Positions 4,809 through 10,110 of a DNA stretch of 10,110 nt are shown here, piece after piece. Every line of letters starts with the position of its first letter. Position 1 is the stretch's first letter. The notes under the pieces were generated by a model. The model did not search any database. It worked only from the letters and a program-made list of their open reading frames with translations, and was not told the DNA's origin. The position numbers and the translations under genes were made by a program. Location: the IMG/VR virus record IMGVR_UViG_3300010280_000146; one strand, 5' to 3'. The stretch comes from a virus. Taxonomy: Duplodnaviria; Heunggongvirae; Uroviricota; Caudoviricetes.

Positions 4809-5104
4809 GCCGCGTCCCTCTGCCCATCAAGCTGATCTGCCAGATCCCAGCGGGCGATAATTGCCATTGCCTCTCGCCGGTAGGCATCCATTAGTTCTTC
4901 GAACTCAGGGCTGTCTTTAGCGGCCTCCAGTACTTCCTGGCGAACGCCTTTGCCTGTTACAACGTCGAAAGTTGAGGCCAGTTGATGAAGTCGGATGCTC
5001 TCAATCAGTTCAACTTGTCGGTCATATAGCTGTTCTGACAGGCGGTAGTCCTTGTCGAACGCCAGCATGATTTTTTGAAGATTTTTCTGCTGATTAACGT
5101 TCAT
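4805..5104 (-). CDS. Hypothetical protein (99 aa) first-in-line upstream of the exonuclease gene; function unknown
   Basis: Track ORF 4805..5119; preferred start is ATG 5104 because GGGAGG sits 7 nt upstream. ATGA overlap with the exonuclease start at 4805-4808. Product MNVNQQKNLQKIMLAFDKDYRLSEQLYDRQVELIESIRLHQ..., no family recognised. Confidence 0.6.
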   Translation of the reverse strand: MNVNQQKNLQKIMLAFDKDYRLSEQLYDRQVELIESIRLHQLASTFDVVTGKGVRQEVLEAAKDSPEFEELMDAYRREAMAIIARWDLADQLDGQRDAA

Positions 5105-5106
5105 TA

Positions 5107-5259
5107 TCAGCCCTCCCATATCTCGTTATCGTTGGCCACATCGCGAGCTTCTTTGCTGACGAAAGCCCACTTAATGCCTTCCTGTAAGGTGCGGAACTTC
5201 CAGCTCATGAATCCGCATGCAGTAACACAGTACCAACCGTTGATAATTTTCCACTGCAT
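5107..5259 (-). CDS. Unannotated small ORF (50 aa, Trp/Cys-rich) at the head of the leftward operon
   Basis: Hand-translated: ATG at 5259..5257 to TGA at 5109..5107 gives MQWKIINGWYCVTACGFMSWKFRTLQEGIKWAFVSKEARDVANDNEIWEG. Its stop is 2 nt from the next start (TGAtaATG) and its 3' end carries that gene's RBS. Below the 60-aa track cutoff. Confidence 0.35.
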   Translation of the reverse strand: MQWKIINGWYCVTACGFMSWKFRTLQEGIKWAFVSKEARDVANDNEIWEG

Positions 5260-5278
5260 AACTTGTTACCTCGGTCTG

Positions 5279-5293
5279 TTACCGTTGAGGTAA
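5279..5293. promoter_or_regulatory. Operator-like palindrome TTACC GTTGA GGTAA (leftward early promoter region, site 1)
   Basis: Perfect 5-bp inverted half-sites with a 5-bp spacer; overlaps the putative -10 and start-site region of the leftward promoter. Confidence 0.45.
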
Positions 5294-5321
5294 TAATTAT
5301 GCGTATCTGGTTTGATGTCAA
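5293..5321 (-). promoter_or_regulatory. Putative pL-like sigma70 promoter for the leftward recombination operon
   Basis: Minus-strand -35 TTGACA (plus 5316-5321, perfect consensus), 17-bp spacer, -10 AATTAT (plus 5293-5298); flanked by the two palindromic sites. Confidence 0.4.
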
Positions 5322-5340
5322 TAGATATGAGTTAAAAAAA

Positions 5341-5355
5341 TTACCCGTTAGGTAA
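5341..5355. promoter_or_regulatory. Operator-like palindrome TTACC CGTTA GGTAA (leftward early promoter region, site 2)
   Basis: Perfect inverted half-sites; centre is 62 bp from the centre of site 5279-5293. Confidence 0.45.
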
Positions 5356-5365
5356 TCGAATAGGC

Positions 5366-5390
5366 AATAAAAAAGCCGCCATAAGGCGGC
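5366..5390 (-). terminator. Rho-independent terminator of the repressor-candidate gene
   Basis: On the minus strand: stem GCCGCC / GGCGGC with loop TTAT followed by TTTTTATTG, 23 nt downstream of the stop at 5413-5415. Confidence 0.6.
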
Positions 5391-5412
5391 TTACTTACTG
5401 AAAAATATGATT

Positions 5413-5997
5413 TTATTGTTTGTTTTTTTCGTTCTGGTTGATGACAAATTCAATGTAACTTTCGATCTTTGCCTTCTCTGTTTCAGGTAACAATGCGTAG
5501 CGCGAGCGGTCATAGTTGATAGTTGCAGGGTCATGCGGATGAATCAGTAGTTCATATCCGTGACGCCCGAATGCAGATGCAACATTCTCCAGGGTGGAAA
5601 TGGAAACGCTGACCTCATTGTTTAACAGGCGGCTTATTGTCACCTGGGCGACGCCGGATGCGCGGTGAAGTTTTCCCTGAGTTGAAAGGTCGCGGCTTTC
5701 ACTCATCCAGCGTTCCAGGTTGTGAGCTGCCAGCTGACCAATGTCGCTTGGGCCGACAGGCTGAAAACCTTCCTGAGAAAGCGAGCGATCGATATCAAGC
5801 CAGTTACGGGGTTTATTGGCGGCAGCTTCAATTTTTCGCGCAACCTGGTCGCCGATAACCTTCTTGCCAAGAGCCCAGCGGTTTACCAGATTTGCCTGAG
5901 TTCCAAGTTTTTCTGCCATCCGCGTCTGAACACCATTGAATTCACGGTCGATCAAGTCGTTGAGATTTTGCCTGCGGACGTCCTGGATACTTTTCAT
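5413..5997 (-). CDS. Tandem helix-turn-helix (two XRE-type HTH domains) transcriptional regulator; candidate prophage repressor
   Basis: 194 aa. First HTH around GVQTRMAEKLGTQANLVNRWALGKKVIGDQVARKIEAA, second around LHRASGVAQVTISRLLNNEVSVSISTLENVASAF. No LexA/S24 peptidase motifs seen. Placed like cI, divergent from a Cro-like gene, with its own terminator. Confidence 0.75.
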   Translation of the reverse strand: MKSIQDVRRQNLNDLIDREFNGVQTRMAEKLGTQANLVNRWALGKKVIGDQVARKIEAAANKPRNWLDIDRSLSQEGFQPVGPSDIGQLAAHNLERWMSESRDLSTQGKLHRASGVAQVTISRLLNNEVSVSISTLENVASAFGRHGYELLIHPHDPATINYDRSRYALLPETEKAKIESYIEFVINQNEKNKQ

Positions 5998-6052
5998 TTT
6001 CTGGAAAATCGCCTCATATATGAATCAGTAGATGATTCAATTTAAAGCAATA

Positions 6053-6067
6053 TTACCCAACAGGTAA
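6053..6067. promoter_or_regulatory. Operator-like palindrome TTACC CAACA GGTAA (divergent promoter region, site 1)
   Basis: Perfect inverted half-sites between the repressor-candidate start (5997) and the Cro-like start (6152). Confidence 0.45.
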
Positions 6068-6069
6068 AT

Positions 6070-6084
6070 GCACCCCATAGGTAA
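6070..6084. promoter_or_regulatory. Degenerate operator-like site GCACC CCATA GGTAA (divergent promoter region, site 2)
   Basis: Right half-site perfect, left half-site 3 of 5; centre 17 bp from site 1. Confidence 0.3.
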
Positions 6085-6090
6085 CTATCC

Positions 6091-6127
6091 TTGATTTTTG
6101 TTACCTTATGGGTGAATATTTATTATC
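6091..6127 (+). promoter_or_regulatory. Putative pR-like promoter for the Cro-like gene (element assignment ambiguous)
   Basis: Candidate -35 TTGATT (6091-6096) or TTGTTA (6099-6104) with -10 TATTAT (6121-6126, 16-bp spacer from the latter); overlaps operator-like site 3. Confidence 0.3.
6101..6115. promoter_or_regulatory. Operator-like site TTACC TTATG GGTGA (divergent promoter region, site 3)
   Basis: Left half-site perfect, right half-site 4 of 5; overlaps the candidate rightward promoter. Confidence 0.35.
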
Positions 6128-6151
6128 TGAAATAAATATCAGGCAATAGCT

Positions 6152-6382
6152 ATGAGCGATAACGGACATTTCGATTTCAAAAAGCACTGGCTTGCACTTA
6201 CTCCGGATGAGCGTGAAGCCTTCGCACAGGAAGCCGGAACGACGAGTCACTATATCCAGACTCACTTAACAGGTAAGCGCAAAATGCCAGGTAAGGTATT
6301 GATGAATGGGCTTTTTAAAGCCTGTAAAACAAGACAATGGCTGCGCTCAAAAGCGGAACTGGCATACTTCTTCTACTCATGA
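6152..6382 (+). CDS. Cro/YdaS-like small HTH regulator
   Basis: 76 aa; LTPDEREAFAQEAGTTSHYIQTHLTGKRKMPGKVLMNGLFKACK fits Cro/CI-type and YdaS-like HTH proteins. Divergent from the repressor candidate and followed by a terminator. Confidence 0.7.
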   Translation: MSDNGHFDFKKHWLALTPDEREAFAQEAGTTSHYIQTHLTGKRKMPGKVLMNGLFKACKTRQWLRSKAELAYFFYS

Positions 6383-6403
6383 TATCTGGCAACAACCCTC
6401 TGT

Positions 6404-6427
6404 AGACCGCCATCCGGCGGTCTTTTC
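6404..6427 (+). terminator. Rho-independent terminator directly after the Cro-like gene
   Basis: Stem AGACCGCC (6404-6411) / GGCGGTCT (6416-6423), loop ATCC, then a short T-run (6424-6426). Confidence 0.55.
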
Positions 6428-6437
6428 ATATCTATTC

Positions 6438-6452
6438 GTACCTCAAAGGTAA
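6438..6452. promoter_or_regulatory. Operator-like site GTACC TCAAA GGTAA upstream of the replication operon
   Basis: 9 of 10 half-site positions match TTACC/GGTAA; lies between the cro terminator and the 66-aa gene, followed by a TTGATA -35-like hexamer at 6470-6475. Confidence 0.3.
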
Positions 6453-6532
6453 TAAAAAACCAAATCTGGTTGATATTTTTTTTGTGTCAGCACAAAATAA
6501 CCGTAATCCCAATACTAATAACAGGGCTTACC

Positions 6533-6733
6533 ATGGAAATCATTACACGTATTGATGCCGCAAAGCGCGGACTTAAACGCTACTACACCGGAAAACCATG
6601 TAAGCACGGACATGACAGTGAACGCTGGGTTTACAACGGACACTGTGTTGAGTGCACCATGGAATCAAACCGTCGCATCAGGGCAGAGATTAAGCAGATC
6701 ATGATTAATTCCTCCCCACAACATTCAAGCTGA
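6533..6733 (+). CDS. Small Cys/His-containing (putative zinc-binding) protein at the cII-equivalent position
   Basis: Preferred internal ATG 6533 of track ORF 6470..6733. 66 aa, MEIITRIDAAKRGLKRYYTGKPCKHGHDSERWVYNGHCVECT..., with a C-x-H-x-H ... C-x-x-C arrangement. The track's upstream extension is hydrophobic and lies in promoter DNA. Confidence 0.55.
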   Translation: MEIITRIDAAKRGLKRYYTGKPCKHGHDSERWVYNGHCVECTMESNRRIRAEIKQIMINSSPQHSS

Positions 6734-6748
6734 TAGCGGAGATTAATC

Positions 6749-7564
6749 ATGAGCAGACATGCAACAGATTGGGCCTGGGAGACAGATCCAGGTAGCTCGT
6801 CATTAAAGCTCATACTGCTCTCGATGGCTGACAGAGCCGATGAATATAACCTCTGCTACCCCAGCATAGAACGCCTCGTTAAAGACACTTGTCTGAATAA
6901 AAAAACCGTGCAGGCCGGGCTTATATCGCTCATGAAAATGGGGCTTATTTCAGATACCGGAGAGAGAAAGGGAGCGACAAAAAGAGTGCGGGTTTTCTCT
7001 CTTAATATAACCAAAAACGGGAACATTAAAGGCAACCGGGAGGGGGGCAATGAACCCGAAAACGGTAATGTTACCGAAAACGGGAATATACCCAAAAACG
7101 GGATGTTGAATGATCCCAAAAACGGGATGTTGAATGATCCCAAAAACGGGATCCAGAACCAGTCATATAACCGGTCATTTAACCAAGAGAGGGAGAGCAG
7201 GACAAAAAACGGGGATTCTGTGTCTCATGACCCCGGCGCAAACAACGCCGTGATGAATAACTTTGTTCCTCCTGGTGGGCCAGGGCAATTAGGCAAATTT
7301 GTCATGCATGAACAATGGCAGCCATCAGATGACTTTCTTCGGAAAAGCTCATTGCAGGGAATCTACCTGGATAGTCTGCCAACGGCACAGGAACTTGCAG
7401 AGTTCAGAATTTACTGGATGGCTGAGGGTAAGGCATACCATCAGGCACAGTGGGAGCAGAAGCTGGCAAGGCGGCTGCAGATTAGCAGACAGAAGCAATC
7501 AACATTACCTGATAACAACGTTCCGCACTGGAACAGCCCTGAAGCGTGGGAGGATTTCTTGTGA
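6749..7564 (+). CDS. Replication initiator (O-like): N-terminal winged-HTH domain, Asn/Gly-rich repeat linker, C-terminal DnaT-like domain
   Basis: 271 aa. N-terminus MSRHATDWAWE...LKLILLSMADRADE...SIERLVKDTCLNKKTVQAGLISLMKMGLIS (HTH_36-like). C-terminus WQPSDDFLRKSSLQGIYLDSLPTAQELAEFRIYWMAEGKAYHQAQWEQKLARRLQISRQ closely parallels the E. coli DnaT C-terminal region (WQPDADF...[29 protein letters not shown], recalled). RBS GGAG 8 nt upstream. Confidence 0.85.
   Translation: MSRHATDWAWETDPGSSSLKLILLSMADRADEYNLCYPSIERLVKDTCLNKKTVQAGLISLMKMGLISDTGERKGATKRVRVFSLNITKNGNIKGNREGGNEPENGNVTENGNIPKNGMLNDPKNGMLNDPKNGIQNQSYNRSFNQERESRTKNGDSVSHDPGANNAVMNNFVPPGGPGQLGKFVMHEQWQPSDDFLRKSSLQGIYLDSLPTAQELAEFRIYWMAEGKAYHQAQWEQKLARRLQISRQKQSTLPDNNVPHWNSPEAWEDFL
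7011..7150 (+). repeat. Iteron-like direct repeats inside the O-like gene (candidate origin of replication)
   Basis: Six copies of the core C(C)nAAAACGG(G) at 7011, 7055, 7075, 7091, 7115 and 7139, including two exact 24-bp tandem units CCCAAAAACGGGATGTTGAATGAT (7091-7114, 7115-7138); they encode the repeated NGMLNDPK linker. Confidence 0.6.
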
Positions 7565-8346
7565 ACAACGTTTTTACCGCGATACAAAACCGTGACGGAG
7601 AAGCCCTTTCTCGCATGTCAGGTTATGAGCATCAGTACACCAACAATGACAACGTGGTGAACATGTCAGCAGAGAGGCTTGTTGATGCCCTTTTCAAACA
7701 GCTGAAACAACTGTTTCCGGCGGCAGTGGTAACCAACCTGAAGACGCCAGAGCAGGAAGTTGCTGCAAAACAGCAGTGGATTGCTGCGTTTGCCGAAGGG
7801 GGGATCCGAACCCGTGAACAGGTTTCTGCTGGTATGCGCCACGCCCGCGCCAGTGAATCTCCGTTCTGGCCGTCGCCAGGGCAATTCATCAAGTGGTGTA
7901 AAGACAGCAAGATGGTTCTTGGCGTCACCATTGACGATGTGATGGCGGAGTTTCACCGGTACAGCAAGGAAAAAAGTTTATATCCTGGTGGTCCCGAAAG
8001 ATTCCCGTGGCGGCATCCGGTTATGTACTGGGTCGTATGTGATACCCGCCGTGCAATGTATCAGCGCCAGCTTAGCGAGATTGAGGTTGAGAAACACGCG
8101 CGCAGGCTGCTCGATGATTGGGCGAAAAAGGTGGCTTCCGGACAGCAGATACCCGATCCGGTGATCAGCATACAGGCAAAGCCAGAGCCCATGAGTACAC
8201 CTCCGGACACAGGGAGAGACGTTTACCATCCACCAGGGCGAAGTTTCGGGTGCATGCCTAACGCCGCCACTCTGGGGGGAATAACACCGGCGCAGTGGCT
8301 GATGGAGGAATACAGGCGGGGAAAGGCGGCAGGATTTATCAAGTAA
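7561..8346 (+). CDS. Lambda P-like replication protein (DnaB helicase loader)
   Basis: GTG 7561 with GGGAGG 7 nt upstream, overlapping the O-like stop (GTGA). FPAAVVTNLKTPEQEVAAKQQWIAAFAEGGIRTREQVSAGMRHARASESPFWPSPGQFIKWC parallels lambda P (FPASLANRDQNEVNEIRRQWVLAFRENGITTMEQVNAGMRVARRQNRPFLPSPGQFVAWC, recalled). The track start at 7546 is an alternative. Confidence 0.75.
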   Translation: MNNVFTAIQNRDGEALSRMSGYEHQYTNNDNVVNMSAERLVDALFKQLKQLFPAAVVTNLKTPEQEVAAKQQWIAAFAEGGIRTREQVSAGMRHARASESPFWPSPGQFIKWCKDSKMVLGVTIDDVMAEFHRYSKEKSLYPGGPERFPWRHPVMYWVVCDTRRAMYQRQLSEIEVEKHARRLLDDWAKKVASGQQIPDPVISIQAKPEPMSTPPDTGRDVYHPPGRSFGCMPNAATLGGITPAQWLMEEYRRGKAAGFIK

Positions 8347-8383
8347 TACCAGCGCGATAGCGCATTTTTTTACGCCTTGATAA

Positions 8384-8398
8384 TTACCTTTTGGGTAA
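8384..8398. promoter_or_regulatory. Operator-like palindrome TTACC TTTTG GGTAA downstream of the P-like gene
   Basis: Perfect inverted half-sites in the AT-rich intergenic region 8347-8463. Confidence 0.4.
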
Positions 8399-8445
8399 TA
8401 AAGTATTCTAAACTCTATTGATTTCGTGTCTTATGTGGTTTTTAA

Positions 8446-8460
8446 TTACCTCAGGGGTAA
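8446..8460. promoter_or_regulatory. Operator-like palindrome TTACC TCAGG GGTAA abutting the DUF1064 gene start
   Basis: Perfect inverted half-sites ending 3 nt before ATG 8464 and overlapping the likely RBS; centre 62 bp from site 8384-8398. Confidence 0.4.
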
Positions 8461-8463
8461 ATC

Positions 8464-8808
8464 ATGAGAAAACAGATACAGGCTCTTGGTCGACTCAAAA
8501 CAGGCCAGATGAACAAAACAGAATCTGCGTATTGCCAGCACCTTGAGCTGCGTAAACGTGCAGGAGAAATCGTCTGGTATCGATTTGAGGGTATCAAGCT
8601 GCGGTTAGCTGACAACACGTTCTATACGCCCGATTTTGCTGTGATGCTCGCCACCGGCGAGATGGAACTGCACGAAGTGAAAGGTTTCTGGACCGACGAC
8701 GCCAGGGTGAAAACCAAAGTCGCCGCAGATCAGTATCCGTTCCGAATCATCGGGGTAACGGTTAAACCAAAGAAAGCAGGTGGTGGCTGGAACATCGAAG
8801 AGTTCTGA
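8464..8808 (+). CDS. DUF1064-family phage protein (nuclease-like fold, function unknown)
   Basis: 114 aa; NKTESAYCQHLELRKRAGEIVWYRFEGIKLRL...YTPDFAVMLATGEMELHEVKGFWTDDARVKTKVAADQYP fits the DUF1064 pattern as recalled. Confidence 0.65.
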   Translation: MRKQIQALGRLKTGQMNKTESAYCQHLELRKRAGEIVWYRFEGIKLRLADNTFYTPDFAVMLATGEMELHEVKGFWTDDARVKTKVAADQYPFRIIGVTVKPKKAGGGWNIEEF

Positions 8809-8848
8809 ATCGACGATCTTTTTAGTTATCAATGTAATCAATAAGTTA

Positions 8849-8857
8849 TGTGGATAA
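8849..8857 (-). promoter_or_regulatory. Consensus DnaA box (TTATCCACA on the minus strand) upstream of the 187-aa gene
   Basis: Plus-strand TGTGGATAA at 8849-8857 is the exact reverse complement of the DnaA box consensus; a single copy, so chance cannot be excluded. Confidence 0.25.
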
Positions 8858-8869
8858 GCGAGGGTAAAG

Positions 8870-9433
8870 ATGGAAAGTAATATCAAAGGGTTAGTTGCCG
8901 CCGGGCATGAGATGGCTTCGGAACTGAAAGCAGAATGTGGTGCCGTTGATATGCGCAGCGTGGCAAAGCTGATCAGCGATTTGGCAACGCAACTGGAAGT
9001 GCAACTGGTGCGTGCTAATGCGCTGGCCGAAGACCAGCAGAAAGCGATTGAGTCAATTAAGCAGGCTGATGCGGCTGTTAAGTTGGCACACGAGAAGTTT
9101 TCGGCGCTGGCGGCGGAGAATGCGGGGCTGAAGTCTGGCGCTATGGACGAAATCAAGGTTATCAACCGTGGAGGGCAGGCATATTGTGTAAAAGATGGCG
9201 TGCAAGTTAATCCCATGTATGCAAGAGGGTGGAATGACTATCGCGCAAAGTCTCTGCAATCAGACCCCCCAGCCACCGATGCTTTCCTGGCTGAAATTGA
9301 ACGCAAAGCAATCCGCAAGTTCATTAACAGCATTGAACACATCCTGCGTGACAAGTTGTCACCGTATGACACCGAAGAGATGCTTGAGACTATGCGTATT
9401 TTTCTGGAAGAACAGGGAGGCGAGCAAAAATGA
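8870..9433 (+). CDS. Hypothetical protein (187 aa) with a predicted coiled-coil N-terminal half
   Basis: RBS GAGGG 5 nt upstream of ATG 8870; Ala/Glu/Lys-rich heptad-like N-terminal region; no family recognised. Confidence 0.6.
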   Translation: MESNIKGLVAAGHEMASELKAECGAVDMRSVAKLISDLATQLEVQLVRANALAEDQQKAIESIKQADAAVKLAHEKFSALAAENAGLKSGAMDEIKVINRGGQAYCVKDGVQVNPMYARGWNDYRAKSLQSDPPATDAFLAEIERKAIRKFINSIEHILRDKLSPYDTEEMLETMRIFLEEQGGEQK

Positions 9434-9732
9434 CAATCACAAAACAACGAGTAGAAAAAATCATATATCGCCATGAAATGGGACTGAACAGCGATGTCAC
9501 TGCCGAAGAGGTTTATGACCTGGCTGTACTGGCGCTGAATTTATCAAATATCGCAAACCTGAAGCGATACGAGCTTGATATGGGTGGTTGTGACTCGTTC
9601 GGTCAGGATTGTGGCGCTGACATGACTGAAGATTCTGATGGCGATTATGTCCTGTTTGATGACGTGGTTAAGTTGTTTGAGCTTGATACATTCGAAAGCC
9701 CAGCAAAGGAGGCAACCAGTGAGCAAGATTGA
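9430..9732 (+). CDS. Hypothetical acidic protein (100 aa)
   Basis: ATGA overlap with the upstream gene stop at 9430-9433; acidic C-terminal half (DSDGDYVLFDD...); no family recognised. Confidence 0.5.
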   Translation: MTITKQRVEKIIYRHEMGLNSDVTAEEVYDLAVLALNLSNIANLKRYELDMGGCDSFGQDCGADMTEDSDGDYVLFDDVVKLFELDTFESPAKEATSEQD

Positions 9733-10110
9733 CTATCAGGCACTGCGTGAAAAGGCAGAGCGTGCAATTCCGGCAATGGAACGCCTGTTAATGTTGCCAG
9801 TTGATGATGATCTGATAAGCGAACAGGAACTTAAAGATTACGGTGTGGATATTGATGCGCTCAACGCCTTCAAATTTCTGACCGGACCAGAAACCGTGCA
9901 GGCGCTGCTGGATGAACGGGAAAGAAACCAGCAATACATCAAACGCCGTGACCAGGAGAACGAGGATATTGCGCTAACGGTTGGGAGGCTGCTAATCGAA
10001 AACGGCCAGCTTGTTGCCGATACGCTACGCCACTTAGCTGATAACGAAATCGACTCTGATTATTTTGCTATCACCTCAACGAATGAGAACGGTACTGAAA
10101 TTGATCATGA
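9719..10110 (+). CDS. Hypothetical protein, 3'-truncated by the window edge (not in the ORF track because no stop is reached)
   Basis: GTG 9719 with AAGGAGG (9706-9712) 6 nt upstream; open frame to the window end, hand-translated as MSKIDYQALREKAERAIPAMERLLMLPVDDDLISEQELKDYGVDIDALNAF.... Start overlaps the previous gene by 14 nt. Possible resemblance to Ead/Ea22-like N-termini is only a weak recollection. Confidence 0.5.
   Translation, partial: MSKIDYQALREKAERAIPAMERLLMLPVDDDLISEQELKDYGVDIDALNAFKFLTGPETVQALLDERERNQQYIKRRDQENEDIALTVGRLLIENGQLVADTLRHLADNEIDSDYFAITSTNENGTEIDH

Follow-up and report, generated by a model that had tools for sequence, protein, structure and literature searches.

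Gene map and palindromic sites of the window

On sequence comparison, the window (the whole stretch of 10,110 bp analyzed in this study) is a phiV10/epsilon15-type (Uetakevirus) E. coli prophage, which is a common type. Over positions 5000-10110, it shares ~97% identity with the region for immunity and replication in Escherichia phage phiV10 and other Uetakevirus (epsilon15-like) phages. Of 5426 complete E. coli genomes, 531 (about one in ten) contain the region 8300-8560, mostly at 95-99% identity. Phages of the phiV10 type serve as O157 reporter phages. The features of the gene map are as follows:

314-1564: integrase gene (int)
Between integrase and repressor in the gene list, leftward: genes for an MT-A70 methylase, a PerC-like protein, RecT and a PDDEXK exonuclease
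5413-5997, minus strand: Rep repressor, 194 aa, matching PDB 5D50
6152-6382, plus strand: Cro-like small repressor (PHROG 35, transcriptional repressor, E = 5.6e-13)
6404-6423: strong terminator after the cro-like gene
Between the terminator at 6404-6423 and position 6749: small gene
6749-7564: DnaT/HTH_36 initiator (Pfam)
7546-8346: lambda-P-like gene (Pfam)
8464-8808, plus strand: DUF1064 gene, the first gene of a putative operon (Pfam PF06356; PHROG 190 Holliday junction resolvase, E = 7e-43)

The DUF1064 protein encoded at 8464-8808 is probably a Holliday junction resolvase. In epsilon15, Tyrion, Superficieibacter and Erwinia dacicola, a RuvC-like resolvase fills the DUF1064 slot after the same promoter; the finding that one slot can hold either resolvase suggests that the DUF1064 and RuvC-like genes are functionally interchangeable. 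Within the DnaT/HTH_36 initiator gene, we also observed six direct repeats of ~24 nt (GAATnnnCCCAAAAACGGGA) at 7003-7155, spaced 18-45 bp apart, which by analogy with lambda O are probably origin iterons.

The original prediction for this locus placed two perfect TTACC-N5-GGTAA palindromes downstream of the P-like gene, with a spacing of 62 bp that repeats the spacing of a leftward pair, and every detail of it was matched by our motif search. The two sites of this right pair and the fifth perfect site of the window are:

8384-8398, no strand assigned: distal palindrome (site 1), TTACCTTTTGGGTAA, a perfect TTACC-N5-GGTAA read from the sequence
8446-8460, no strand assigned: proximal palindrome (site 2), TTACCTCAGGGGTAA, a perfect TTACC-N5-GGTAA read from the sequence
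6053-6067, no strand assigned: fifth perfect site, found by the TTACC-N5-GGTAA search

The start-to-start distance is 62 bp in the right pair (8384 and 8446), as it is in the left pair (5279-5293 and 5341-5355). The 10,110-bp window thus has five perfect sites (5279, 5341, 6053, 8384 and 8446), compared to a mean of 0.00 and a maximum of 0 in 200 dinucleotide-preserving shuffles of the window. With up to two mismatches allowed, 11 sites were observed in the window versus 3.0 expected, and the additional ones are grouped at 6070, 6101 and 6438. Between the end of site 2 at 8460 and ATG 8464 lies only ATC, a gap of 3 nt. The purine run AGGGG at 8453-8457, the sole Shine-Dalgarno candidate of ORF 8464-8808, lies inside site 2, so that the predicted overlap of the second site with the likely ribosome-binding site (RBS), 3 nt short of the start codon, was confirmed.

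Predicted promoters and terminators associated with the sites

A conserved promoter between the two sites of the right pair and a terminator upstream of them had been missed in the earlier reading of this DNA; together with the sites, they would form a separate operator-bracketed transcription unit. The elements predicted at the right pair, at the left pair and between rep and the cro-like gene are:

8352-8371, plus strand: weak intrinsic terminator after gene P, a GCGC-GATA-GCGC stem-loop followed by T7 (RNA fold, conservation)
8418-8423, plus strand: -35 hexamer TTGATT, part of the conserved CTATTGA, 19 nt past site 1
8441-8446, plus strand: -10 hexamer TTTAAT, 17-nt spacer from the -35, read from the sequence with a register uncertain by 1 nt
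5279-5355, minus strand: PL-like promoter with operators 5341-5355 and 5279-5293 (motif search, promoter scan, alignment)
5321-5316, minus strand: left promoter -35 TTGACA (promoter scan)
5298-5293, minus strand: left promoter -10 AATTAT, overlapping site 5293-5279
6053-6115, no strand assigned: OR cluster between rep and the cro-like gene, with sites at 6053 (perfect), 6070 and 6101

The terminator at 8352-8371 has a predicted RNA fold of -7.4 kcal/mol (z = -2.9; 0 of 200 shuffles equally good), is recorded as a putative rho-independent terminator in the phiV10 record and is kept as GCGC-N4-GCGC-T7 in all lineages compared. Downstream of it, site 1 (8384-8398) is followed by 19 nt, TTGATT (8418-8423), 17 nt and TTTAAT, the last T of which is the first base of site 2 (8446-8460). 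The promoter scan of the window did not call TTGATT-17-TTTAAT, whose -10 has T instead of A at position 2; its hexamers are conserved, and its -10 and +1 are overlapped by site 2. Two calls that the scan did make in this region were rejected. The first, TTGATA(8377)-16-TAAAGT(8404), would place site 1 in its spacer, and its TTGATA is not kept in phiV10, epsilon15 and Tyrion; the second is a minus-strand promoter-like match at 8432-8405 with a -10, TAGAAT, that is not conserved.

With the -10 ending at 8446-8447, we infer that transcription starts at ~8452-8455, inside site 2, and the predicted transcript leader would be only 10-12 nt long. Site 2 is centred on this predicted +1 and site 1 at about -62; site 2 overlaps not only the -10 hexamer and the predicted +1 but also the Shine-Dalgarno sequence AGGGG. 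The left pair has the corresponding order on the minus strand, i.e., site 5355-5341, 19 nt, TTGACA, 17 nt and AATTAT overlapping site 5293-5279. When the left and right layouts of six phages were compared by ungapped alignment, with the register set on the first site, both showed the identical geometry of a site, 19 nt, CTATTGA, 17 nt and a -10 overlapping the second site. The CTATTGA sequence was near-invariant among 59 unique right-type and 54 unique left-type sequences. The right pair is therefore part of a full putative unit of terminator, distal operator, promoter and proximal operator, the last of which also holds the RBS. Given the terminator before the right pair and the promoter layout shared with the left pair, the right pair appears to mark a promoter of its own, under repressor control, for the resolvase (DUF1064) gene and the downstream accessory "nin-like" block.

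In the OR cluster, the site at 6070 has two mismatches, and the site at 6101 has one and sits in the spacer of TTGTTA-17-TATTAT; the spacings of 17 and 30-31 bp within this cluster are kept in relatives. Just past the terminator of the cro-like gene, a further site with one mismatch (GTACCTCAAAGGTAA) was observed, followed after 17 nt by TTGATA-17-CAAAAT. This layout at 6438-6498 is common to phiV10, Tyrion, Kp4865-1, epsilon15 and SPC32H and looks like a fourth operator/promoter, which would serve the replication genes together with the small gene and has no more than a half-site at its -10/+1. Upstream of int, TTACCTTAAAGGTAT at 257-271 also matches the motif with one mismatch and is kept in prophages of K. 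pneumoniae and Scandinavium. It lies within a larger inverted repeat (tgacggtat...ataccgtca), and integrase-binding sites are annotated in the equivalent region of epsilon15; we rejected it as a Rep operator for int and consider it probably an Int site.

It was also proposed originally that, in the RNA, the palindrome covering the RBS might fold into a hairpin and so occlude translation of the DUF1064 gene. The Shine-Dalgarno sequence does lie within the palindrome, the isolated 15-41-nt stretch folds at minimum energy into a 5-6-bp hairpin, and the terminator upstream is weak (-7.4 kcal/mol), so that read-through RNA with both arms probably exists. The hairpin of site 2 has, however, only 5 bp and -3.5 kcal/mol on its own (-3.5 to -4.3 kcal/mol overall), its z-score in a 41-nt context is -0.29, i.e., it folds no better than shuffles, and the 70-nt context has a minimum-energy fold that lacks it. 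Folding of the 5' UTR thus spoke against the proposal. Moreover, the motif also occurs at four other places without an RBS, and its arms never vary, so that covariation gives no support. As the conserved promoter is predicted to start transcription at ~8452-8455, inside the palindrome, its own transcript would lose the 5' arm, and only RNA reading through the weak terminator could form the hairpin. An RBS-occluding hairpin is accordingly very improbable.

Conservation of the sites and the proteins that may bind them

The sample for the conservation analysis was picked by Rep or DNA homology and not by the motif, as a guard against circularity, and covered 12 lineages, including phiV10, epsilon15, SPC32H, Tyrion, Kp4865-1 and six species genomes from a Rep-profile search with one genome per species. 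The motif is common to the window and the five named phages, in which Rep identity ranges from 42 to 100% and the right pair is found at exactly 62 bp between the terminator of the replication genes and the next gene. The six species genomes with full-length Rep homologs (41-75% identical), those of Superficieibacter, Erwinia dacicola, Klebsiella pneumoniae, Citrobacter werkmanii, C. braakii and Scandinavium, all contain the right pair and the OR cluster as well as the left pair, which is spaced by 61-63 bp. Thus, the right pair was present in 12 of 12 lineages with Rep identities of 41-100%, spaced by 62 bp in 11 of them and by 61 bp in Scandinavium, and the conservation in relatives that the original prediction called for was found for the sites as well as for their spacing. 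In the same species-genome search, four distant homologs that share the Rep N-terminal domain only were associated with no such sites. The mean pairwise identities of the segments in the 11 lineages aligned at 62 bp are:

Half-sites (20 nt): 100%
N5 centre of site 1: 46%
N5 centre of site 2: 60%
19-nt gap from site 1 to the -35: 76%
-35 hexamer: 82%
17-nt spacer: 72%
-10 zone: 85%
30 nt downstream: 41%

Scanning IMG/VR with the motif pattern yielded 120 loci, which were selected for perfect sites and were used for spacing and flanks, not for site conservation. The distances between consecutive perfect sites in these loci were 62 bp (117 times), 63 bp (19 times), 76 bp (9 times) and 17 bp (25 times). 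Among the 59 unique right-type sequences, the terminator, CTATTGA and the -10 zone were near-invariant, and ATCATG directly followed site 2 in 42. The N5 of site 2 is purine-rich in the right-type pairs (TGAGA, TCAGA, TAAGG and similar), whereas that of the proximal site in the left-type pairs is TCAAC or similar. This difference implies that the centre of site 2 appears to have been selected to double as a Shine-Dalgarno sequence.

The palindromes might in principle be chance repeats, or non-regulatory sequence shared at the boundary of a recombination module. A mosaic junction does lie here, as the gene downstream varies among relatives (DUF1064 or RuvC-like). But no perfect match is expected from the shuffles, the half-sites are fully conserved although their centres and flanks diverge, and the motif accompanies full-length Rep homologs only. 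Such an origin is effectively refuted by these three lines of evidence, and we assign it almost no probability.

The sites have in part been annotated before. The epsilon15 GenBank record AY150271.2 carries "protein_bind: repressor (lysogeny)" features, one of which (35906-35922) aligns in register with 8384-8398 of the window. Three of its repressor sites lie left of rep, and others, at 12-27, 2931-2947 and 19895-19911, are in the late region. The second site of the right pair is unannotated in the epsilon15 record, the phiV10 record has no operator features, and no mention of the 62-bp bracket around the promoter was found in the records and texts consulted. The right pair therefore belongs to a known repressor system, already partly annotated in epsilon15, and does not reveal a new kind of system. 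The same palindrome is also seen upstream of the terminase, portal and tailspike/ant regions, both in the epsilon15 annotation and in several IMG/VR loci; given these palindromes in the late region, Rep may act genome-wide, beyond the immunity region.

Rep (5413-5997) matches PDB 5D50, the Rep of SPC32H, over its full length (residues 1-190, E = 4e-42) and is 100% identical to phiV10 p40 and ZX5 ORF21. It is predicted to consist of an N-terminal DNA-binding domain followed by dimerisation and tetramerisation domains, and its N-terminal segment NLVNRW..G.K.IG..AR.IE is invariant despite an overall identity of 42%. Kim and Ryu (in 2013) reportedly found that induction does not cleave SPC32H Rep, which is inactivated by an antirepressor instead. 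Pfam placed HTH_3 at residues 106-147 of Rep and matched the N-terminal domain to a YdaS-like domain below threshold only; for the SPC32H homolog, the region matching HTH_3 is named a dimerisation domain in a citing paper. Overexpression of ZX5 ORF21, the identical Rep, blocked the lytic cycle, stopped the production of free phage and lowered holin transcription by 99.97%; operators were not mapped in that study (PMC9782041). According to PMC9638917, SPC32H Rep binds palindromic DNA as a tetramer that draws the members of each DNA-binding-domain pair from different dimers; the antirepressor Ant disassembles this tetramer. PMC9986798 describes the C-terminal tetramerisation (TetDloop) fold of SPC32H Rep as resembling that of Rco of pLS20, a DNA-looping repressor that loops DNA between operators 75 bp apart. 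Ant homologs, whose locus lies beyond the 10-kb window, are ~88% identical in phiV10 and other phages with the identical Rep.

The main reader of the sites could also be not Rep but the Cro-like protein (6152-6382), which would then turn down the early promoters in lytic growth. The Cro-like protein belongs to PHROG 35, a transcriptional repressor family, and its identity of 76-84% across lineages whose Rep is only 42% identical matches the unchanging half-sites no less well than Rep does. Yet the N-terminal domain of Rep is strongly conserved as well, and its invariant segment fits the invariant half-sites. In lambdoid switches, both repressor and Cro proteins share operators, so a role of the Cro-like protein is more likely an addition than an alternative. 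Furthermore, the annotators of epsilon15 assigned its sites to the repressor, and a Rep homolog is the reported binder of palindromic sites in PMC9638917. A predominantly Cro-like reader is hence unlikely; Rep and the Cro-like protein probably both use the TTACC-N5-GGTAA sites, and sequence comparison cannot separate the two.

Between the phiV10-type and the SPC32H/epsilon15-type phages, identity is ~42% for Rep, ~88% for Ant and 76% for the Cro-like protein, and the operator half-sites do not differ. Given that Rep diverges while the half-sites do not, the immunity classes in Uetakevirus may not differ in DNA specificity. Covariation of repressor specificity with operator sequence was considered as a line of evidence and set aside as uninformative, because the half-sites are equal in every immunity class.

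Proposed repression of the right promoter and comparison with known systems

We consider it likely, with good confidence, that the right pair is the Rep operator set of an independent early promoter, with the binding, the start site and the repression predicted from comparative evidence. The original placement of the downstream block under the same putative repressor stands to the extent that the right pair is of the same operator family as the left pair in all relatives sampled, a support that is comparative in kind. In the mechanism that we propose, transcription of the replication genes would largely end at the weak terminator (8352-8371), and a sigma-70 promoter (TTGATT at 8418-8423, -10 at ~8441-8446) would start a new transcript at ~8452-8455 that encodes the DUF1064 resolvase and the downstream accessory genes, independently of read-through from the replication operon. 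In the lysogen, the N-terminal domain of Rep would occupy both palindromes and shut out RNA polymerase, and polymerase would be excluded from the leftward promoter in the same way. Once Ant inactivates Rep, the right promoter would fire, and the Cro-like protein may share the sites during lytic growth.

The spacing of 62 bp corresponds to 5.9 helical turns at 10.5 bp/turn, which places the two sites in phase on one face of the DNA, and a spacing of 61-63 bp is kept in all lineages at both promoters. Sites on the same face at about six helical turns fit cooperative binding, possibly with bridging by a single tetramer that has two DNA-binding-domain pairs. That one Rep tetramer clamps the palindromes at -62 and +1 and bends the roughly six turns of promoter DNA between them is a tentative, rather doubtful proposal drawn by analogy; if true, it would account for a spacing that stays constant within 1 bp at two promoters across the Enterobacterales. 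A variant in which the left and right pairs are laddered together by tetramers across 3.1 kb, in the manner of lambda CI at OL/OR, appears less likely.

A somewhat stronger candidate, though still short of an even chance, is that Rep binds each site alone, with neither cooperativity nor bridging of the DNA, and that the 62 bp are a by-product of having sites upstream of the -35 and over the -10/+1. Of the 47 intervening bases, 28 are set by the hexamers and the 17-nt spacer, which leaves only the 19-nt gap free, and the constant spacing could come from the fixed position of each site relative to RNA polymerase. Single sites do occur, as at the replication promoter (6470-6498), which has an upstream site at a 17-nt gap and no full proximal site. 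On the other hand, the free 19-nt gap is kept within 1 nt at both promoters while its sequence is only 76% identical, and the repressor family is tetrameric with two DNA-binding-domain pairs, as described in PMC9638917. Overall, the right pair is an ordinary, well-conserved operator/promoter module, of which the conserved 62-bp bracket is the one feature that merits an experiment. A resolvase/accessory block with its own repressor-bracketed promoter would give a compact map of prophage silencing, in which the early operons each follow a terminator and have a promoter and operators of their own, in place of lambda-style antitermination.

The closest known systems are epsilon15 (AY150271.2) and the Rep/Ant switch of SPC32H (PDB 5D50 and 5D4Z). 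They share with the window the same 15-bp TTACC-N5-GGTAA palindrome, the same site positions (left of rep, in the gap from rep to the cro-like gene, and past the replication genes) and a homologous repressor (E = 4e-42); phages of the phiV10 type also have a homolog of Ant. They differ from the window in that Rep is only 42% identical and, for epsilon15, in that the gene downstream is RuvC-like and not DUF1064.

The arrangement also resembles the OL/OR control of lambda by CI and Cro: early lytic operons have a core promoter overlapped by a palindromic operator, a cluster of three sites separates the divergently oriented repressor and cro-like genes, and early operons run both ways. In contrast to lambda, in which the operators are adjacent and ~24 bp apart, the operators of the window bracket the promoter at about -62 and +1, and a third and a fourth early promoter after terminators replace N-type antitermination. 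In addition, the repressor of the window is not a self-cleaving S24-peptidase protein, and its SPC32H homolog is inactivated by an antirepressor.

With LacI O1/O3, Rco (operators 75 bp apart) and PrgX, the window shares two operators that flank a promoter at a distance of whole helical turns, and the Rep family is described as tetrameric, its tetramerisation fold being common to Rco. Bridging by Rep would be an analogy to these looping repressors, in which 62 bp lies at the short end of known loops, and the sites of the window are single palindromes, not direct-repeat arrays.
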